From IMG/VR virus record IMGVR_UViG_3300037400_001528: a stretch of 36,565 nt of DNA. One strand, written 5' to 3'. Both the position numbers and the translations under genes were made by a program. Under the pieces are notes generated by a model. It did not search any database and was not told the DNA's origin. It was given only the letters and a program-made list of their open reading frames with translations. The stretch is from a virus. The stretch's first letter is position 1; the number at the start of each line of letters is the position of its first letter. Shown one piece after another: positions 14-36,482 of the stretch.

Positions 14-127
14 CTTAAATGAAGCCCGTCCAGCTGGAGTTTGATTTTGGCGAGTTACCGAACGAAGAAGCAGAGAAACCAAAGCCCGCCCTGCCCCATT
101 TTGACAATCCGAAATGCGACAACGAGC
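1..127. repeat. Terminal overlap copy A, identical to 36439-36565. Indicates a circular or circularly permuted complete genome of 36438 bp.
   Basis: Base-by-base reading shows that G13 followed by cttaaatgaagcccgtccagctgg...gcgacaacgagc is the same at both ends. An overlap of exactly 127 nt is what a k=127 assembler leaves on a circular contig. Confidence 0.95.
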
Positions 128-468
128 GGCTTTTAAACTACCAGTGGGCGTATAAGGAAAACGGCGACCAAAACGCGCTTAATTTCATGTACACGCTGGG
201 GTATAAAATCGCACTAAAGTACATCAGCACTAAGGCGCAGAAAAACAGGCACATAGCGGAACTATGCAGGAGCGACAAAGAGGAAAAGGCGCACAATGCC
301 ATTACCTACATAATCGCCCGCTATCTGAAAGTATCGGATTTTGCGATAAGCGAAAGTTTTACCGCATATTTATATTTGCGAATCCAGCACGAATTATTCT
401 ACACCCGCAAGGTTGATAAAATCGTGCAGTTCGTAGACATGGAAACATTTTACAGGGGGAAGCAATGA
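19..468 (+). CDS. Putative late-gene transcription activator, sigma-70 region-2-like, in the position of ArpU/RinA-type activators
   Basis: 149 aa. GDQNALNFMYTLGYKIALKY...EEKAHNAITYIIARYLKV..FAISESFTAYLYLRIQHELFY follows the sigma-70 region 2 pattern (F.tY....I). It lies between the replication module and the structural genes. Confidence 0.45.
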   Translation: MKPVQLEFDFGELPNEEAEKPKPALPHFDNPKCDNERLLNYQWAYKENGDQNALNFMYTLGYKIALKYISTKAQKNRHIAELCRSDKEEKAHNAITYIIARYLKVSDFAISESFTAYLYLRIQHELFYTRKVDKIVQFVDMETFYRGKQ

Positions 469-4986: not shown

Positions 4987-5523
4987 ATGGGAGAACTCAT
5001 CAAAAAAACAAAAGTCGTGCCGTTCATCAACACAGGCACTAGCTCAACCCCGGTATGGACGCAGATAAAAAAGTCTACGAGCTTCACGCTTTCTATGAAT
5101 CCGCAGACAAAGACATTTGATTTTATTTCCTGCGAACACCCGCAAAATGAAATCGACAGTTACCAGCCGAGCCTTGCGCAGGAAATCACCATGTTCAAGG
5201 GAGAACCCGACTACGAAACAATCTTTGATATGCTTTACAACAGGGCAACAGGAGCGGACGCACACCGCGACGCAATGATTGTTTTTTACAAGGAATCTGG
5301 AAGCTACACACCCGATGGGGAAAGTGAAAGCATTACCGTATACAAGGCTTGGAAGATTGACGCACTCGTCACAATCAACCAGATGGACACGGTAAATGAA
5401 AACATCGGCTTTGATTTGGGCTTGAACGAAATCGAAAACGGTGCGGTCGAAATCGGCGAGGGCGGCGCACCTTCATTCATTGCCGGAGAATGGAACGGCA
5501 ACACATTTGCACCTGCCGCATGA
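4987..5523 (+). CDS. Major tail (tube) protein
   Basis: 178 aa with a GAGGAG RBS, followed by a Gp15-like chaperone gene. No sheath gene is present, so the tail is non-contractile. Confidence 0.6.
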   Translation: MGELIKKTKVVPFINTGTSSTPVWTQIKKSTSFTLSMNPQTKTFDFISCEHPQNEIDSYQPSLAQEITMFKGEPDYETIFDMLYNRATGADAHRDAMIVFYKESGSYTPDGESESITVYKAWKIDALVTINQMDTVNENIGFDLGLNEIENGAVEIGEGGAPSFIAGEWNGNTFAPAA

Positions 5524-6083
5524 TAAACTTAAAAAAAACAGGGTTGCCCGAAGCCGTAGAGGTTGACGGCGACCTTTACCCCGTATACACATCGTTCAAG
5601 TTTTGGATTAGGTTTTTTGAACTGCTGGCCAATAAAAACACGCCGCCCGATGATTTTGATTTTATGTATTCCACGGTCGCAAAACCGCAAAGCCGATTAA
5701 ACGGGGTTATTGCGCTCGTGCAATTCGGCAACCCGCCGCAGGAACTGCCGAGAACCCAAGGCGACGACCCGGAAAAAGCCGTTGATTATGCCGTAGACGC
5801 AGATTATATCTATGCGGCATTTATGGAGCAGTATGGAATAGACCTCATTAAAAGTGATATGCACTGGTACGAGTTCCAGGCACTTTTTAGGGGGCTGCAC
5901 GATACAAAGCTGAATGAAATCATCGGCTACAGGCTCTACGAGAACACCAGCGGGAAGCCAGATGCTTACACCCGTCAGATGGAAAAGCTGCGGAGCGCGT
6001 GGGAACTCCCGCAGGACAATGAAGAAGAGGACGAAGCCTTAAAGGAGTTTGAAGCAAAGCTGTACCCCGGCGGGGAAAACTGA
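5520..6083 (+). CDS. Tail assembly chaperone-like protein (Gp15-like)
   Basis: ATGA start overlaps the upstream stop. MINLKKTGLPEAVEVDGDLYPVYTSFKFWIRF... resembles the Gp15 family found after siphophage major tail genes. Confidence 0.45.
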   Translation: MINLKKTGLPEAVEVDGDLYPVYTSFKFWIRFFELLANKNTPPDDFDFMYSTVAKPQSRLNGVIALVQFGNPPQELPRTQGDDPEKAVDYAVDADYIYAAFMEQYGIDLIKSDMHWYEFQALFRGLHDTKLNEIIGYRLYENTSGKPDAYTRQMEKLRSAWELPQDNEEEDEALKEFEAKLYPGGEN

Positions 6084-6088
6084 CTATA
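6079..6088 (+). promoter_or_regulatory. Late motif variant ACTGACTATA (9 of 10), 5 nt upstream of the methyltransferase ATG
   Basis: TGACTATAA is shared with the copies at 9155 and 12894. Confidence 0.35.
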
Positions 6089-6093
6089 AAAGT

Positions 6094-7507
6094 ATGAGGA
6101 TAACCTGCGAAACAAAAGACACCCTGCCGCTATCCGCTTTGACCGAGTTTCAAGGCGGATTAAAGAAGCGCACGGCAGAAGATACAAAGAAAATCGAAAA
6201 GAGCATAAACGATTACGGCTTCGCGACGCCGTTTTTTGTTTGGAAGCATGACGGCATAAACAGCGTGCTAGACGGACACGGACGGTTACAGACATTAAAG
6301 GAAATGCAGCAGCGCGGCGAAGAAATCCCCGCCCTGCCCGTCGTATACATCGACTGCGCCAACGAAGCAGCCGCCAAAAATCTATTATTACGCATTTGCA
6401 GCACATACGGCGAAATGACAGCGCAGACCGTCCACGACTTCATTAAAGAGCTTGAAATCGCGTTCGACGATATACGCCTGCCATGCGGCACAATCGACCT
6501 CACCCCGCTAGATAAAAAGAAAATGGACGACACCAAAAAGACATTGCGCCAGCAATTTCTAGTGCCGCCCTTTTCCGTATTAGATACCCGTCAAGGCTAT
6601 TGGCAAGACCGCAAAAAGCAGTGGAAAAGCATAGGCATAAAATCCGAAGAGGGGCGCGACAATAAGATGTTGAAGCACCTCAAAGAAAATGCCAGCAAAG
6701 TGAACGGCGGCGCAGAAAACACATTGAGCGAAGTATCAATCTTCGACCCCGTATTATGCGAAACAATGTACACATGGTTTTGTATGCCACACGGCAGCGT
6801 ATTAGACCCATTCGCAGGGGGAAGCGTTCGGGGCATTGTAGCCAGCTATAAACACATGAAATACACGGGCTTTGACATTCGCCCCGAACAGGTAGAAGCC
6901 AACGAAAAACAAAAGGTGATCTGCGACGGCAACGAATACGCCCCGCAATGGATTTGTAAAGACAGCGCGAAAATGGGCGAAGTGCTGGGGGGGGGGCGAA
7001 ATGTACGATTTTGTATTTAGCTGCCCACCCTATGCAGATTTAGAAAAATACAGCGACATTGACGGCGACATCTCAAATATGGATTATCCTCAGTTTTTGG
7101 AAACATACCGCGCAATCATCAAGGCGGCCGTTTCACATCTGAAAGATAACCGCTTCGCCGTTTTTGTAGTCGGCGAGGTACGAAATAAAAAGACGGGCGA
7201 ATATTATAATTTTGTACCCGACACAATAAAGGCATTTGAGGACGCGGGCTTAAAATATTACAACGAAATCATATTGCTAAATGTAGCAGGCGGGAAAGCG
7301 TACACAGCAGGGCACGACGCAAAGAAAAGCCGCAAGATTGCAAAAGTACATCAGAATATACTCGCATTTGTAAAAGGCGACGCAGACGAAGCGGCGAAAA
7401 TCCACGAGCAAGTTTTAGTTTTCCTCAAAGGAAACAGCAAAGAAGCTAACGCCGATTTAGGCGACTTCCGCGCCGATAACTGCATATTGCCCGAAATGTT
7501 CGAGTAA
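6094..7507 (+). pseudogene. ParB-like N-terminal domain fused to an N6A/N4C DNA methyltransferase, split by a +1 frameshift in a G10 tract
   Basis: The upstream frame (6094-7020) has the ParB/Srx-like DGHGR motif and the AdoMet motif I DPFAGGS. The downstream frame (7001-7507) starts MYDFVFSCPPY (motif IV, PPY). Deleting one G gives the in-frame junction ...LGGGEMYDFVFSCPPY... Confidence 0.75.
6987..6996 (+). repeat. G10 homopolymer at the methyltransferase frameshift, 4 nt upstream of the ATG at 7001
   Basis: ctgGGGGGGGGGGcgaaATG read directly from the sequence. Confidence 0.9.
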
Positions 7508-7534
7508 ATCCGATTTTTCCGAAACGGTGGCACA

Positions 7535-7894
7535 ATGGGCAGAAAGAAAAAGATTTATAAAAAAGCAGATATTCTCGAAGCCATAAAAGGTAGCGGCGGC
7601 ATAGTAACAACCGTCGCCCTCGCCTTAAATTGCGATTGGCACACCGCAAAGGCAAACATAGAGAAATACGAAGAAACCCGCGAAGCGTTCGACGGCGAAT
7701 TAGAAACGGGGCTGGATTTGGTAGAGGGCAAAGCATATCAGCAGGCAAAGAACGGCGACGGCGCGATGATACGCTTTATTTTAGCAACTAAAGGACGCAA
7801 ACGCGGCTACGGCGAAACAGCCCCGCAGGAATTGGACGACGCAGAGGATAACGAGCTGACAATCGAAATAGTGGACGGCGACGATGAGGATTAA
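7535..7894 (+). CDS. terS: Terminase small subunit
   Basis: 119 aa with an N-terminal HTH-like segment (ILEAIKGSGGIVTTVALALNCDWHTAKANIEKY) and an acidic tail. Overlaps the terL start. Confidence 0.65.
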   Translation: MGRKKKIYKKADILEAIKGSGGIVTTVALALNCDWHTAKANIEKYEETREAFDGELETGLDLVEGKAYQQAKNGDGAMIRFILATKGRKRGYGETAPQELDDAEDNELTIEIVDGDDED

Positions 7895-9155
7895 ATCAAA
7901 CACGATATTTGCAAAGAAATATAATAAACTCTTCCGCTGGATAATGAAGCACGAATACACCGAGTACACGCTGACAGGCGGCCGCGGTTCGTGCAAATCC
8001 TCGTTTATATCGCTATGTATAATTATCTTGATTGTGATGTTTCCGCAATTCAACGCGCTAATTATCCGCAAGAACGCAAACACCCTGCGCACCAGCGTAT
8101 ACGAGCAAATCATTTGGGCGATTGAACGGCTCGGACTACGCAGCCGCTTTAAAATCCCGAAATCAGAAACAAGCGCGCTGCCGATTGTATACCGCCGCAA
8201 GAACGGTACAAAGCAATACATAATCTTTCGGGGCTGCGACAATCCCGAGAAAATCAAATCTATCAAGATTGCACAGGGCTATTTTGGTTTGATTTGGTTT
8301 GAAGAAAAAACCGAGTTCACACCCGCAGAGATACAGAATGTTAAAGTATCAGCCATGCGCGGCGGCAGTAAGTTCTATGTATTTGAATCATACAACCCGC
8401 CAAGCGCAAAACGCCATTGGTGCAACACCGACGCACGCACACCGAAAAAAGACCGCGTCGTTTTTCACACCACATATTTAGACATACCGCGCGAATGGTT
8501 GGGCGAAGCGATACTTAACGAAATCGAACACACGAAGAACACGAACGAGCGGGCATACAGAAATATATTTTTAGGGGAAGCGACAGGAACAGGGCTTAAC
8601 ATATTTGAGAATGTGGAACTGCGGGAAATCACGGACGAAGAAATAGCGGCGTTTGATTTTTTCTACAGCGGCATAGACTGGGGATATTACCCCGACCCCT
8701 TCGCCTTTTCCACATCATCATACAACGCGGCGACACAGACGCTTTTTATTTTTGATGAAATGTATCTGAACAAGCGCGGCAATTTTGAAGCGTTCCAAGA
8801 CTTAACAAAGCACATGGAAGCGCACGGCATGAGCATTGCAACGGACAGAATCACAGCCGACAGCGCAGAGCCTAAGAGCGTGGCTGACTTTAGGAGCTGG
8901 GGCGGAAATGTGCGCGGCGCAATTAAGGGAATAGGAAGCCGTGACGCGTCGTTTAAATGGCTACAGGGATTAAAACGGATTGTAATAGACCCCGCGCGAT
9001 GTCCGAGAATCGCCGACGAGTTCACGCTATACGAGCACGAAATAGACAAGCGTACAGGCGAGACTCTTAGCGGCTACCCCGACGGACAGCCCGACCACGG
9101 AATAGACACGGTGCGATACGCGCTGGAAACGGTTTGGAGACATGCGGGCGAGTAA
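7884..9155 (+). CDS. terL: Terminase large subunit (PBSX/Terminase_3-like)
   Basis: Walker A motif TGGRGSCKSS, an FEE Walker B-like segment, and a C-terminal nuclease region ending DHGIDTVRYAL. Confidence 0.85.
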   Translation: MRIKSNTIFAKKYNKLFRWIMKHEYTEYTLTGGRGSCKSSFISLCIIILIVMFPQFNALIIRKNANTLRTSVYEQIIWAIERLGLRSRFKIPKSETSALPIVYRRKNGTKQYIIFRGCDNPEKIKSIKIAQGYFGLIWFEEKTEFTPAEIQNVKVSAMRGGSKFYVFESYNPPSAKRHWCNTDARTPKKDRVVFHTTYLDIPREWLGEAILNEIEHTKNTNERAYRNIFLGEATGTGLNIFENVELREITDEEIAAFDFFYSGIDWGYYPDPFAFSTSSYNAATQTLFIFDEMYLNKRGNFEAFQDLTKHMEAHGMSIATDRITADSAEPKSVADFRSWGGNVRGAIKGIGSRDASFKWLQGLKRIVIDPARCPRIADEFTLYEHEIDKRTGETLSGYPDGQPDHGIDTVRYALETVWRHAGE

Positions 9156-15948: not shown

Positions 15949-16929
15949 ATGGGAACGGTAAACTTTGGACAAGTCGCGGCTCTAATTCAGAGCGTGAGCG
16001 CAGAAGCATTGGCAGAAGGAGCAACCCCAACCGTAAGAAATGCAGGAACAAAAGCAAACGCGCAGTTAGTTTTTGGTATTCCCGTAGCTACGGCATTGAG
16101 CCACAATATTCCGCGTTTAGTGCCTAAAGATATTACATCATACATCACCGACGGCACATTTTGGAAGCGTTTAGCTGGCACAAACGGCTTCGCGCTTTTT
16201 GAAGATATTTATGTCGGCGATTATTTCCAAATGTCCCGCGCAATTTCCGCATACGAGCGCACAGGGGAGTATCAAACTACAGGCTCGCAGTATGTAACCA
16301 TTGCGGGGCTTGATACCATGATGAACAACGGCGACCAAGACAGCGGAATTACATATCATCATGCCGTAATGGTTGCAGGGCAAGGGTTCGGCGGCACACA
16401 ACACTTCGGACGGAGCCGCATGAACGCGACAAACGACACAACGGGCGGCTATAAAGCAAGCGAAATGAATACGCTTGTTTTGGGCGATGTAGTAAGCGCG
16501 GGAAGCACAGCAGCCGACGCGACAATTAACCAGCAGCTCTACGCAGAGTTTGGAGTTCATTTGAAAACCACCCGCGAGCTGGTAACAAACGCAATCAACG
16601 CCACAGGCTACAACAGATTTGGAAGCGCGACAGGTTGTGCAAGTAACTGGGAATGGATAAGCGCACAGGCTATTTTAATGAGCGAGGTCGAAGCCTACGG
16701 CTCTATAGCTTGGAGCAGTTCGGGCTATGACACAGGAAACGCAAACCGACAGTTGCCGCTTTTTGCATTTAGCAAACAGGCACAAAATAACCGTTCGGCT
16801 TATTGGTGGCTAAAAGATGTTGCGTCCGCCGCTGATTTCTGCGGTGCCGACGCCGATGGCGGTAGCAGCTGCCACTACGCGGGCCATGCGAGATATTACG
16901 TTCGTCCCCGCTTCATCTTAGGGGCATAG
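15949..16929 (+). CDS. DGR target protein 1 (fibre/receptor-binding candidate with a C-terminal CLec-type variable region)
   Basis: 326 aa. The C-terminus YWWLKDVASAADFCGADADGGSSCHYAGHARYYVRPRF is encoded by VR1, which matches the TR except at adenines. Confidence 0.85.
   Translation: MGTVNFGQVAALIQSVSAEALAEGATPTVRNAGTKANAQLVFGIPVATALSHNIPRLVPKDITSYITDGTFWKRLAGTNGFALFEDIYVGDYFQMSRAISAYERTGEYQTTGSQYVTIAGLDTMMNNGDQDSGITYHHAVMVAGQGFGGTQHFGRSRMNATNDTTGGYKASEMNTLVLGDVVSAGSTAADATINQQLYAEFGVHLKTTRELVTNAINATGYNRFGSATGCASNWEWISAQAILMSEVEAYGSIAWSSSGYDTGNANRQLPLFAFSKQAQNNRSAYWWLKDVASAADFCGADADGGSSCHYAGHARYYVRPRFILGA
16818..16913 (+). repeat. DGR variable repeat VR1
   Basis: Ungapped 96-nt alignment to TR 17561-17656. 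There are 20 mismatches, 19 of them at TR adenines (13 A->G, 4 A->C, 2 A->T) and one C->A. Confidence 0.9.
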
Positions 16930-17560: not shown

Positions 17561-17656
17561 TATTGCGTCCGCCGCTAATTTCTGCAATGCCAACAACAAT
17601 GGCAATAGCAACTACAACAACGCGAGCAATGCGAACAATTACGTTCGTCCCCGATT
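17561..17656 (+). repeat. DGR template repeat (TR)
   Basis: Contains 30 adenines. In the target frame it carries 12 AAY codons (AAT TTC TGC AAT GCC AAC AAC AAT GGC AAT AGC AAC TAC AAC AAC GCG AGC AAT GCG AAC AAT TAC). Non-coding position between avd and RT. Confidence 0.9.
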
Positions 17657-17809: not shown

Positions 17810-18889
17810 ATGGGTACATTGTACGAAAAGCTGCTAGATCTGAACAACCTACACGAAGCCTACATAAAAAGCAAAAGCGGCGTGGAGTGGAAAGAATCAG
17901 TACAAAAATACGGAATCTACGAGCTGGCACACATTCAAGAATTGAGCGAAGCCCTTAAAAATCATACCTACAGGCAAAAGCCTTTTTATGAGTTCGACAT
18001 CAACGAACGCGGAAAGCAGCGGCATATTAAAAGCCTGCACATCAGCGACCGCGTTTTACAGCGCGCATTATGCGACCAAATATTAACGCCCGAATTGCAG
18101 AAATATTTAATTTATGACAACGGCGCGAGCGTAAAAGATAAAGGGATAGAGTTTTCCCGCCGACGGCTAAAAACACATTTAACACGCTATTATAAAAAGT
18201 ACGGGCGCGACGGCTATATATTGCTGATTGATTTTTCAAAATATTTTGACAATATCCGCCACGACAAACTATTAGAAATGATTGCCGAAAAAATCGACGA
18301 CGCGGAAGTTATAGAACTATTGCGGCATTTAATCACAACGTTCGACACGGCAGAAAACGCGGGGCGTTCGGTTGGAATCGGCAGCCAAATATCACAGATT
18401 GCAGGGATTTTCTACCCGACCCGCATTGATAATTATTGCAAGATAGTCCGCAGCGTAAAATATTACGGCCGCTATATGGACGATACATATATCATTCATA
18501 ACGACAAACAATATTTGCGCGAGCTATTGCACGACATACAGCAGATTTGCGACGAATTAGGAATCATCATAACCAAAAAGAAAACGCAGATTGTAAAACT
18601 TTCAAACGGTTTCACATTTCTAAAAATGCGCTATTTAATCACGGACACAGGAAAGATTATTGTAATTCCATGCAAAGCCAGCATAACACGCGAACGGCGC
18701 AAGCTGCTGAAATTAAAAAGATTTGTATTAGCGGGGCGTATAACACCCGCAGAAATCCGCGAGCAATACAAAAGCTGGCGCGGAAATCTAATCAAATACA
18801 ACGCATATAAAAGCGTTCGCTCCACGGACGCATTATATAAATCACTATTCGGGAGTAATTATGGTCAAAAAGAAAAAGGAATTAACTGA
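17810..18889 (+). CDS. DGR reverse transcriptase
   Basis: Motifs ISDRVLQRAL, LLIDFSKYFDNIRH, VGIGSQISQIAGIFY (DGR-type I/LGxxxSQ), YGRYMDDTYII (YxDD) and FTFLKMRY. I prefer the ATG at 17810 (MGTLYEKL) over the track start at 17750. Confidence 0.9.
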   Translation: MGTLYEKLLDLNNLHEAYIKSKSGVEWKESVQKYGIYELAHIQELSEALKNHTYRQKPFYEFDINERGKQRHIKSLHISDRVLQRALCDQILTPELQKYLIYDNGASVKDKGIEFSRRRLKTHLTRYYKKYGRDGYILLIDFSKYFDNIRHDKLLEMIAEKIDDAEVIELLRHLITTFDTAENAGRSVGIGSQISQIAGIFYPTRIDNYCKIVRSVKYYGRYMDDTYIIHNDKQYLRELLHDIQQICDELGIIITKKKTQIVKLSNGFTFLKMRYLITDTGKIIVIPCKASITRERRKLLKLKRFVLAGRITPAEIREQYKSWRGNLIKYNAYKSVRSTDALYKSLFGSNYGQKEKGIN

Positions 18890-26958: not shown

Positions 26959-27645
26959 TTATTGAATATCTTTAAAACGAACCTCCCGGATGCGACCCGT
27001 ACGAAGAATCATATCATTTAGGTAATCTTTTATTTCGGTTTTTACAGCTTCATTTACCGGGGAAAAATCGGCGGCGTTTTTTTGGGCGATGAAAACCTTT
27101 AGATAATCCTTGATTATAAAATCATAGCTGGCTATTTCCGACGGCGTAGTTGTATCATCGGGTTTATATCCGAAAGAAACGGAGAGCGAAACCGCTACGC
27201 CGTCCGCAGTTTTATTTTCAACGGTAAACTCTTCCGTCCACGAATAAACATCACCAGATGTTTTGTAGTAATCAGCTACCTCAAATTCATACGGTATATC
27301 ATCGAACTTGACCGAATAACGCCCCTTTGAGCATTTTGCCTTTAATTCAATCGGCTTTACAGAATAATAATCATAGCGCGAGCCGTCTTTTTTTGCGAAA
27401 TCGAATAATTCCAAACGGTCGCCGTCTATTGGTAAATCGGCGGTATAAAAATAAACGCCGTTCAAAGTCCATTCGATATTTTTTATTCCCGCACCAGTAT
27501 TATTATTTACCCAGTAAAACACCTGCGGGACATTAAAATCTTTTGAGTTATTTTCTACGCTGATATTGAGATTTTGAGCCGAGCAGGAAACAAACTGAAC
27601 GGTAAAGCAGACCAAAAAAGCCGCAAACAAGGATTTGCTTTTCAC
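26959..27645 (-). CDS. Lipoprotein (candidate superinfection-exclusion / moron product)
   Basis: From the GTG at 27645: VKSKSLFAAFLVCFTVQFVSCSAQN has a basic n-region, a hydrophobic core and Cys after FVS. The G8 tract sits 5 nt upstream as an SD. The track start at 27660 is a GTG inside or adjacent to the G tract. Confidence 0.6.
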   Translation of the reverse strand: MKSKSLFAAFLVCFTVQFVSCSAQNLNISVENNSKDFNVPQVFYWVNNNTGAGIKNIEWTLNGVYFYTADLPIDGDRLELFDFAKKDGSRYDYYSVKPIELKAKCSKGRYSVKFDDIPYEFEVADYYKTSGDVYSWTEEFTVENKTADGVAVSLSVSFGYKPDDTTTPSEIASYDFIIKDYLKVFIAQKNAADFSPVNEAVKTEIKDYLNDMILRTGRIREVRFKDIQ

Positions 27646-27650
27646 TTCTA

Positions 27651-27658
27651 CCCCCCCC
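27651..27658 (-). repeat. G8 homopolymer (C8 on the + strand), 5 nt upstream of the lipoprotein start
   Basis: The minus strand reads GTGGGGGGGGtagaaGTG. Confidence 0.85.
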
Positions 27659-27747: not shown

Positions 27748-29001
27748 CTAACCCGCGCGGATTGTAGCCCGCCCGCTATGCGTGTCGGTGTAGAAATAGC
27801 GGTAAATCAATTCTTTCTCGACAATCGACATTTGGTCGCCTACGCAATCAGTTATCGGCTCGGCTAATTCTACATCGTAGTATCTGCCGTCCATGTAAGC
27901 TCGTAGCCCGAAATTTTCAGACAGGCATAGAATAAAACGAACGCAGGAAGCATATTTAGCAATCAGTTTGAAAGAATAGCCGTGATAAATAAAATGCCCG
28001 TCCGCATGGGTTTTCTTTTCTGCGCGTACCGAAAACAGGTAATCAAAATCAACATCGGCGGCGGGCGGTGCTTTCCAGTGTAGGGCTTCATCTTGCGCGG
28101 GAACGGAAAAACGGGCGTTAAACCCGTCAATAAATCCATTTAAAAAAGCGTTCGCCTTTTCGATTGTATCAATATGCAGGAATCGGAAAATATAAGGAAG
28201 CCGTCCCTGCAAAGTTTGCCACAATCGTTCTATGCGCCCTTTGGCTTGCGGGGAGTATGCGGCAATCAATTCTATTTGCAATTCGCGACAAGTTTTTTGC
28301 CATTGCGTTTCAGATTTTTCCGCGCCCGCTAATTGCTCTTCCAGCGTAGCCCCGCGCGTAGTAAAAAAGCATTGCGCACGGTCGGAATAAATGGCGCACG
28401 GCAACAGGCCGCCCGTCCGTATAAATATCTGCCAAAGAAGCTGGTAATATCCTAAAAGACATTCATTCACGCAGAAATACAGGGCAACTACTTTATGGGT
28501 AGCATCATCTATCGCACCATGCAGGGTGACTTTTTGCCCGTTCATAAACCAATCATGCAGGGAAGCGTCAATCTGAATCAAATCGCCCTCATTCGGGCGT
28601 TCATCGCGCGGCAGATGTTTCTTTTTTTCACGCACAGGAATACGGGCGCGTGGCGACACAATGCCAGCCGAAGAAAGAGCTGTGTAAAAAGTCGTATACG
28701 ACGGCAGGACGGGATAATGCAGATAATCCGCGCAATCATCCCGGAACGAAGCGAACGGCGTGCCATCAAACTTTTTATAATCGGCGGCGATTTTTTCCCA
28801 ATCATATTTTTTATTTTTCGGCTTGCGCCCAGTATTGCCGTGAATCCATATAGCGTCGCCATATTGCACCCACCGAGATTTTAGTCGCCAAACCGAAACG
28901 GGGCGAATCCCGATTAAACGCGCACACTCCCGCTCGCTAATTTCCCCACGCGCAAACATCGGAATATAACGCATTTTTAATTTTTGTAACTCGTAATTCA
29001 T
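27748..29001 (-). CDS. DDE transposase/integrase with an rve core (ISNCY/IS1202-like)
   Basis: N-terminal HTH (ISERECARLIGIRPVSVWRLK) followed by LIQIDAS (D), AIYSDRAQCF (D) and YSPQAKGRIERLWQTLQGRL (E). I prefer the ATG at 29001, because the track start at 29067 is a TTG. Confidence 0.75.
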   Translation of the reverse strand: MNYELQKLKMRYIPMFARGEISERECARLIGIRPVSVWRLKSRWVQYGDAIWIHGNTGRKPKNKKYDWEKIAADYKKFDGTPFASFRDDCADYLHYPVLPSYTTFYTALSSAGIVSPRARIPVREKKKHLPRDERPNEGDLIQIDASLHDWFMNGQKVTLHGAIDDATHKVVALYFCVNECLLGYYQLLWQIFIRTGGLLPCAIYSDRAQCFFTTRGATLEEQLAGAEKSETQWQKTCRELQIELIAAYSPQAKGRIERLWQTLQGRLPYIFRFLHIDTIEKANAFLNGFIDGFNARFSVPAQDEALHWKAPPAADVDFDYLFSVRAEKKTHADGHFIYHGYSFKLIAKYASCVRFILCLSENFGLRAYMDGRYYDVELAEPITDCVGDQMSIVEKELIYRYFYTDTHSGRATIRAG

Positions 29002-29209
29002 GGTCTGACAATCGGACACGACACGGGGAACCTTTAGCACATCGGGAAAATATGCGATTTTCCGCAATCGTAATTATTTATTATATATAGATTTACTGCA
29101 ATCAATTATTTTGTTATACAAAATCTGCATTTGCATAATTTGCATAACGCTTGTATACAAATGCTATTTTTGCAGACAAGGCAAATACAAAGTAGATTTT
29201 TGCACTATG

Positions 29210-35777: not shown

Positions 35778-36482
35778 ATGGGGGAATTTAAAACAATATC
35801 GGACTTACTTAAAATCGACACGGAACACTGGCAAGCCCGCGACGAAGAAATAAAAGCGTGGGAAAAAGCGCAGAATTTGCGGGCGAAAAAAGAACGCTAC
35901 CAGCGGCAAGTTCCCGAACGCTACTGGAGCGAAAGCATAGACACATACAAGACCGATACGGAAGAGCGGCGCAAGGCGAAAGCAAAAGCCGAGAGTTTCA
36001 TACAGGCTGTAAAATGCGGGAAGTTTCAGACGCTCGTTTTTTTAGGCACGGTCGGCACAGGGAAAACGCACCTAGCAAGCGGCATTGTATACGAGTGCGG
36101 CGGGTTTTACAGGCTTGCGCCCGCAATCGTTGAGGAAATCCGCCGCGCAAAATCATTCAATGCAAAGGAAACAGAAGCGGACATCTTAGACACCTACGGA
36201 CGCGCCAGCCTTTTAGTAATTGACGAAATCGGGCGCGGGGTTGTGGCGGCAGAAGAGCAGTATATGCTTTATCAGATTATCAACGAACGCTACAACCGCC
36301 GAAAGCCTACGGTTTTAATCAGCAATCAGAATAAAAAGGATTTTTTGAATTATGTGGGAATCGCCGCCGCCGACCGCCTAACCGAAAGCGCACAGGTGGT
36401 GGAGTTTACGGGGCAAAGTTACCGCGCCGTCATAAGGCGGGGGGGGGGGGGCTTAAATGAAGCCCGTCCAGCTGGAGTTTGA
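35778..36482 (+). CDS. DnaC/IstB-like AAA+ helicase loader
   Basis: Walker A GTVGTGKTH, Walker B LLVIDEIG, and the sensor region VLISNQ. The 3' end reads through the G13 tract. Confidence 0.8.
   Translation: MGEFKTISDLLKIDTEHWQARDEEIKAWEKAQNLRAKKERYQRQVPERYWSESIDTYKTDTEERRKAKAKAESFIQAVKCGKFQTLVFLGTVGTGKTHLASGIVYECGGFYRLAPAIVEEIRRAKSFNAKETEADILDTYGRASLLVIDEIGRGVVAAEEQYMLYQIINERYNRRKPTVLISNQNKKDFLNYVGIAAADRLTESAQVVEFTGQSYRAVIRRGGGGLNEARPAGV

Follow-up and report, generated by a model that had tools for sequence, protein, structure and literature searches.

The window analyzed here, the 36,565-nucleotide IMG/VR virus record IMGVR_UViG_3300037400_001528, is a complete, circularly assembled phage genome whose last 127 bases repeat its first 127. 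Within it, a DNA methyltransferase gene is broken at positions 6987-6996 by a run of ten guanines (G10; other tract lengths are written in the same way). We consider it probable, at about 0.68, that this run is a slipped-strand hypermutable tract, or contingency locus, which toggles the enzyme in the phage. The gene product is predicted from its sequence to be an orphan ParB-domain amino-methyltransferase. The elements on which this reading depends are as follows.

6094..7020, plus strand: upstream open reading frame (ORF) in the G10 state, 308 amino acids, frame 1, with a predicted ParB-like N-terminal domain and the S-adenosylmethionine (AdoMet)-binding half of the methyltransferase
6118..6558, plus strand: predicted ParB-like (ParB-CTPase fold) N-terminal domain, approximately amino acids 9-155, with DGHGR at amino acids 60-64
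6805..6825, plus strand: AdoMet-binding motif I, DPFAGGS, amino acids 238-244, read from the sequence
6987-6996, plus strand: uninterrupted homopolymeric G10 tract, a hypervariable site between motifs I and IV, for which G6, G9, and G12 are the in-frame lengths
7001..7507, plus strand: downstream ORF, 168 amino acids, frame 2, the catalytic half of the methyltransferase, starting MYDFVFSCPPY
7019..7033, plus strand: catalytic motif IV, S-C-P-P-Y, amino acids 309-313, in which CPPY aligns with the SPPY/DPPY of amino-methyltransferases

The initial annotation had described a methylase split by this tract, and re-reading of the sequence confirmed its coordinates, its frame arithmetic, and all of its motifs, with DGHGR and DPFAGGS in the upstream frame and MYDFVFSCPPY at the start of the downstream one. 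The upstream ORF runs from the ATG at 6094 to the TAG at 7018-7020 and has the C-terminus ...EVLGGGRNVRFCI (also given as ...KMGEVLGGGRNVRFCI), its last 10 amino acids, GGGRNVRFCI, being translated out of frame before the stop. Removal of one G joins the halves in a single protein reading ...EVLGGGEMYDFVFSCPPY..., the length of which, anticipated at about 470 amino acids, was computed as 470; addition of two Gs to give G12 yields a 471-amino-acid protein. The tract is thus a repeat inside an ORF at which a change of one unit shifts the frame. It also exceeds what is expected by chance, as the genome holds two G/C runs of at least 10 where 1000 first-order Markov simulations predict 0.025, and three of at least 8 where the same simulations predict 0.46.

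Evidence for a switch comes from tract length in related genomes, a comparison that the initial annotation had proposed as a check and that favors the switch. A collection of 5.8 billion proteins was searched, and the DNA of relatives was drawn from IMG/VR, JGI, GTDB genomes, ENA, and Logan; scans of JGI metagenomes and IMG/VR contributed only three to four close relatives, and most of the evidence stems from the ENA and Logan look-ups. The protein search returned full-length relatives of 469-470 amino acids at 93-99% identity together with truncated ones of 307-315 amino acids at 98%. Reading the tract at the equivalent codon position, following CTG, gave these alleles (L numbers denote contigs).

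G5, out of frame: L041-46, L094
G6, in frame (LGGEM): L056, L060, L061, L089, L095
G7, out of frame: L080, L082, L083, L090
G8, out of frame: L047-49, L077, L091
CTC followed by G8, in frame: L057-59
G9, in frame (LGGGEM): L001, L002, L006, L050, L087, L088, L092, L093, L101, L102
G10, out of frame: the window, L076, L078, L079, L081, L084-86, L100

Repeat number therefore varies from G5 to G10 among close relatives, with both in-frame and out-of-frame alleles, and at the level of natural polymorphism the proposal of a phase-variable methylase is supported. Nearly identical genes can differ in state. The G5 lineage and the G7 contig L090 each lie 2 nucleotides (of about 1400 for the G5 comparison) from the G6 contig L061, G7 L080 lies 4 from G6 L089, G8 L077 lies 6 from G7 L080, and G10 L085 lies 11 from G9 L088. 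On a neighbor-joining gene tree built with the tract masked, tract length changes at least 14 times and the on/off state at least 10 times; the most homoplastic nucleotide site of the same tree changes 7 times, and variable sites change 1.9 times on average. In a tract-blind sample collected through the neighboring 119-amino-acid gene, 7 of 10 contigs are in frame and 3 of 10 out of frame. In the collection, 28 blocks (at least 23 contigs) list the exact 168-amino-acid half as a distinct gene and 177 blocks list the 119-amino-acid neighbor, and clusters at 90% identity contain at least 17 distinct truncated alleles from more than 60 contigs.

The gene carrying this variation is not decaying and remains under strong purifying selection. 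We compared 38 non-redundant copies, taken from many samples and assemblers, a partly biased set in which 21 are out of frame. Once the tract is normalized, all 38 present an open frame of 467 codons with no further stop or indel, so that secondary lesions number 0 in the 21 out-of-frame copies. The ratio of nonsynonymous to synonymous substitution rates (dN/dS) is 0.042 overall, 0.039 for pairs of off copies, and 0.014 for the C-terminal half of off copies, and it is these low values, overall and among off copies, that argue against decay. The comparisons show, in assembled natural variants, a recurrent mutational toggle in a gene maintained by selection, apparently working in both directions, which is the signature of a contingency locus.

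The extent of the tract within the family helps to define what is variable. The run remains uninterrupted in relatives down to 69% amino acid identity, although GGG makes up only 17% of the glycine codons in the genome; the G10 relative L100, at 69% protein identity, carries the tract at the same site, out of frame, in a different gene context. More distant homologues have no tract at this loop and read GSD, NPND, NDGEQ, and others. The loop can accordingly be described, from these alignments, as variable across the family and the tract as a feature of the sub-lineage of the window. The initial annotation had named homologues without a repeat as grounds for rejecting a switch; the distant ones do lack it, which limits the tract to a sub-lineage and does not amount to a refutation. 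The family is overwhelmingly single-chain, at 450-490 amino acids, and is split only at the G tract. A separate observation concerns positions 6814-6821 (GCAGGGGGAAGC inside motif I): the relative P0143, a protein of 248 amino acids found on three contigs, is frameshifted at the G5 run there and reads ...DPFAGEAFGAL. The long tract is therefore not the only site of G-run slippage in the methylase gene.

The position of the break within the protein gives the frameshift its potential significance. Pfam PF01555 (N6_N4_Mtase) matches the fused protein at 38.7 bits against a cut-off of 26.7, and because both halves contribute to the match, the break lies inside one catalytic domain, as had been proposed at the outset. 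The match is circularly permuted, the N-terminal half corresponding to model positions 180-220 (the motif I end) and the C-terminal half to positions 2-110 (the motif IV end). Motif I (amino acid 238) thus precedes motif IV (amino acid 310), the opposite of the beta-class order (IV...I) in PF01555, M.PvuII, and M.MboIIA, and the two halves likewise align to opposite ends of beta-class enzymes in the PDB. Among 89 homologues, D60, G63, and R64 of DGHGR are invariant or nearly so, and the alignment is invariant at D238, P239, G242, and G243 of motif I and at C310, P311, P312, and Y313 of motif IV, the CPPY of which aligns with TSPPY of PDB entry 2zie. Searches of the PDB with phmmer and profiles gave weak matches only, to beta-class N4C/N6A enzymes and to ParB (4umk, E 0.21). 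The data do not distinguish between N6-adenine and N4-cytosine as the target base.

Other resources agree on the two-domain architecture to different degrees. PHROG classifies the C-terminal 300 amino acids as a DNA methyltransferase (phrog_498, E 8e-97) and matches amino acids 10-155 to the ParB-like partition protein families 723 and 620 (E 1.5e-8 and 3e-7), and RefSeq labels a 470-amino-acid relative "ParB N-terminal domain-containing protein." A Pfam search with the N-terminal 192 amino acids at E<=10 returned no ParB or other match, an NCBIfam search returned noise only, and neither Pfam nor NCBIfam gave a match to the Type III mod family. Cultured phages also encode homologues (31-47% identity), among them Listeria phage B054 gp77 and Enterococcus phiFL3A gp36. 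For the in-frame relative P0002, which is 98% identical, an AlphaFold2 model has a mean predicted local distance difference test score of 78, rising above 90 around the tract site, and places the GGG loop (amino acids 299-301) between a helix at 291-296 and a strand at 304-309 that leads into CPPY. In the model the tract would code for a glycine loop ahead of strand beta-4, in the Rossmann sheet; this surface loop is variable and takes GG or GGG. Foldseek retrieved generic class I AdoMet-dependent methyltransferases, the nearest being aTrm11, Trm14, and TrmN, which share the order of motif I followed by motif IV.

When these results are combined, it can be hypothesized that DNA polymerase slippage adds or removes single guanines at the tract. 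G6 and G9 would then give the full enzyme of 469 or 470 amino acids, the "on" state, and G5, G7, G8, and G10 would break the frame between the AdoMet-binding and catalytic halves, leaving activity "off" or strongly reduced; the G10 allele of the window would be "off." Switching would be fast and reversible inside a population, reversibility being suggested by the lack of secondary lesions and the dN/dS of about 0.04 in off lineages. The DNA of "on" phage and lysogens would be methylated and hence protected from restriction, and "off" progeny would evade a methylation-dependent defense or alter the epigenetic regulation of the host.

Several considerations weigh against so simple a switch. Variation in tract length is known from assembled contigs, G5 and G6 are too short for fast slippage, and the G5 lineage, identical in at least six samples, probably represents a fairly stable loss. 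Contigs in the off state were mostly found with off-specific proteins, so that counts outside the tract-blind sample are biased, and the tree may show too many changes if recombination has occurred. The purifying selection seen among off copies fits reversibility and "off" genotypes that still make an active enzyme equally well.

The last point leads to an alternative that we regard as unlikely, namely that the gene is split but functional, with the G-run serving as a Shine-Dalgarno element for the ATG at 7001 and the halves reassembling, or with slippage of RNA polymerase or the ribosome restoring enough of the full-length protein. The layout of the locus lends itself to this idea: many of the phage genes follow G-rich Shine-Dalgarno-like motifs (GGGGG, 4-7 nucleotides, ATG), both remaining long G tracts stand 5 nucleotides ahead of start codons, and G10-CGAA-ATG(7001), with its 4-nucleotide gap, is arranged similarly. 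The upstream stop at 7018-7020 overlaps the downstream ORF by 20 nucleotides, as is typical of translational coupling, the exact 168-amino-acid ORF is called as a gene of its own on at least 23 contigs, and purifying selection is equally strong in off and on copies. Most relatives in the tract-blind sample are nevertheless fused (7/10), out-of-frame states of both signs (+1 and -1) exist, leaving no single conserved programmed shift, and homologues in the wider family do not conserve the methionine that follows the tract. In the structural model the split would also fall inside the Rossmann sheet. Slippage of transcription at G-runs is less established than at A/T-runs. Two related candidates were rejected, a programmed frameshift of the dnaX or insertion sequence (IS) type, as relatives are mostly in frame and the correction needed is +1 or -1 depending on tract length, and a naturally split two-subunit methyltransferase of the M.AquI type, as the split is not conserved in this single-chain family. 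The split-but-functional explanation and the contingency-locus reading are not mutually exclusive, and out-of-frame genotypes may translate both halves. It could be speculated, though we think it quite improbable, that the G-run is an internal ribosome-binding site and that slippage toggles between a single-chain, ParB-tethered form and a two-piece form instead of a simple off state. The two-piece form, in which a catalytic subunit translated on its own would join a ParB and AdoMet-binding subunit, could differ in activity, targeting, or regulation, and if this were true the locus would constitute a prophage-borne "phasevarion" for Treponema in lysogens.

The remaining explanations deny the tract any role as a switch. 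The initial annotation had left open a sequencing or assembly error, in which the true tract is G9 (or G12), the gene is intact, and the extra G is a homopolymer error. Long G-runs are indeed error prone, the contig starts exactly at a G13 run, suggesting homopolymer ambiguity in the assembly graph, the closest in-frame relatives carry G9, and none of the 10 tract-blind contigs carries G10. We nevertheless judge an artifact very unlikely, as the window agrees with the Logan contig L076 (SRR12668996) throughout 8,845 bp, with 0 mismatches, across the circular junction and including both G10 and G13; here, either two assemblers agree or one strain was assembled twice. G10 recurs in seven further contigs of other samples, from MEGAHIT and Logan assemblies, and the out-of-frame alleles G5, G7, and G8 recur between samples with identical flanks, at lengths for which an Illumina consensus error would not be a credible cause. 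It seems highly doubtful to us that the tract is a non-adaptive mutational hot spot, one that arose by chance from glycine codons in a dispensable methylase whose out-of-frame alleles are losses, neutral or slightly deleterious, en route to pseudogenization and serve no regulated bet-hedging. A hot spot would accommodate the widespread, clonal G5 allele, a short tract with low reversion potential, as well as the absence of the tract from more distant homologues and the P0143 frameshift at another G5 run, inside motif I. It is harder to reconcile with 21 of 21 out-of-frame copies being free of secondary lesions, with the dN/dS of off lineages of about 0.04, with a run kept uninterrupted to 69% identity despite the low share of GGG among glycine codons, and with the strong over-representation of long G-runs in the genome.

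If the tract is a contingency locus, it has precedents in other phages. According to a secondary description (PMC4791379), the dam gene of the Bordetella phage BPP-1 offers a poly-G precedent: in this temperate phage, which likewise carries a diversity-generating retroelement (DGR), the ORF of a DNA methylase contains a homopolymeric G-run whose length varies. The enzymes are not detectably related, however, as a tblastn search of 50,697 phage records with the window protein failed to recover BPP-1; the host phylum also differs, and the Bordetella case reportedly involves three phages compared with dozens of metagenomic contigs here. In phage T2, the alpha-glucosyltransferase gene agt is a contingency locus (Gomez, Barrick and Waters, bioRxiv 10.1101/2025.10.21.683753) in which loss of the modification escapes TgvAB and its regain escapes McrA/BC. 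Both loci have a homopolymer in a phage DNA-modification gene and reversible +/-1 frameshifts, and a selective logic of the same kind is proposed here. T2 differs in being a virulent coliphage whose glucosyltransferase gene carries A-runs of about 9 and reverts about 1000 times more often than a point mutant does, whereas the candidate locus in the window is a G-run in a predicted orphan ParB-methyltransferase of a temperate phage. In Campylobacter Fletchervirus phages, G7-11 tracts in phage ORFs are reported (Sorensen et al. 2021) to give rise to phenotypically distinct subpopulations, but through receptor-binding proteins that affect host range and not through a DNA-modification enzyme.

Other systems share either the mechanism or the domain architecture. 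Phasevarions, in which methyltransferase switching has genome-wide epigenetic consequences (Type III mod of Haemophilus, Neisseria, and Helicobacter; PMC3230613, PMC5149525), share the in-ORF repeat and slipped-strand on/off switching; those genes are chromosomally encoded parts of Type III (or Type I) restriction-modification systems, whereas the gene in the window is phage borne, has no adjacent restriction (res) gene, contains a predicted ParB-like domain, and orders its motifs differently. Fusions of a ParB-CTPase fold with an N6_N4 methyltransferase, known from phages and prophages (PMC12704722), have the architecture predicted for the gene in the window and are enriched in prophage regions, but neither homopolymer interruption nor on/off polymorphism is reported in that survey. 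Treponema pallidum, a member of the same genus as the probable host, has well-documented poly-G phase variation (PMC7864442). A 2026 review of prokaryotic methyltransferases covers the prophage-encoded PamA and many phase-variable bacterial enzymes and no phase-variable phage enzyme. The mechanism proposed here is thus classical slipped-strand switching and is not new; what the locus adds is the breadth of its metagenomic evidence.

Phage methyltransferases protect phage DNA from restriction and can reprogram gene expression in lysogens. If the switch operates as proposed, each burst would mix methylated and unmethylated progeny, a form of bet-hedging between restriction-modification and methylation-dependent defense. 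Contingency loci in phages have been shown experimentally only recently, in T2 and T4. The present locus would add a natural case at population scale, from a gut phage that is uncultured, and dozens of public metagenomes already contain its on and off alleles. In the annotation of Treponema phage contigs, a ParB-methylase ORF that is split at a G-run should neither be dismissed as an error nor be merged automatically.

The carrier is a temperate, DGR-carrying, siphovirus-like phage of a gut spirochete, with Treponema berlinense as its probable host. One G9 copy of the methylase appears in RefSeq as the T. berlinense protein WP_277075122.1, encoded on the 102-kb contig L092 of a metagenome-assembled genome (MAG; NCBI GCA_029100905.1, JAQXPZ010000002.1), which contains a nearly identical prophage region with the methylase in frame, and more distant homologues of the methylase also come from Treponema and Spirochaetaceae MAGs. 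A conflicting host signal, the binning of the 38-kb contig L061 to a Eubacteriales MAG, was given less weight than the T. berlinense contig. A blastn search of window positions 5500-8000 against 50,697 GenBank phage records returned zero matches, with no cultured close relative among them. The methylase is flanked upstream by tail (Gp15-like) and lysis (amidase) genes and downstream by the 119-amino-acid protein and the large terminase, and no restriction gene adjoins it among these flanking genes.

Two further long G tracts are present in the genome.

1-13, equal to 36439-36451 (one circular site): G13 tract at the 3' end of the IstB/DnaC-like ORF 35778..36482, arranged as G13-CTTAA-ATG ahead of ORF 19..468
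27651-27658, minus strand (C8 on the plus strand): G8 tract arranged as G8-TAGAA-GTG, 5 nucleotides upstream of the lipoprotein-like ORF 26959..27645

The first of these is also variable: the window and L076 have G13, three relatives from IMG/VR have G9, and L060 lacks the tract. In the G9 versions, the stop of the upstream ORF and the following start codon overlap as ATGA. The contig break coincides exactly with this G13, which points to an ambiguous assembly graph there. The second follows a promoter-like site, TTGATT...TATAAT, and is probably a Shine-Dalgarno element; a pattern search of IMG/VR for the tract at this lipoprotein gene found nothing. The product of ORF 26959..27645 (minus strand) has a signal peptide ending in FVSC and a weak match to FliL. 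Elsewhere in the genome, too, the Shine-Dalgarno-like motifs of many genes are G-runs (GGGG or GGGGG, 4-7 nucleotides, ATG) and not GGAGG, as seen at the starts 3892, 15495, 22085, 31356, 32660, and 33470.

The DGR, on which the comparison with BPP-1 depends in part, comprises three elements.

16820-16913: variable repeat, at the 3' end of ORF 15949..16929
17563-17656: template repeat, 80% identical to the variable repeat, with the differences at template adenines
17810-18889: reverse transcriptase (PF00078)

A T8 run in the reverse transcriptase gene was considered as a second homopolymer frameshift and hence as a sign of careless assembly. This was rejected, as what looks like an upstream ORF comes from reading through the template repeat from a TTG; the reverse transcriptase starts at the ATG at 17810, in agreement with the relative L060. 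As to integration, a 439-amino-acid ORF on the minus strand (27748-29067) has a weak match to rve, the DDE integrase core, and 35778-36482 encodes an IstB-like (IstB/DnaC-like) AAA+ ATPase. It is conceivable from these assignments that the rve-like ORF and the IstB-like ATPase could form a transposase-type integration module in place of a tyrosine or serine integrase.

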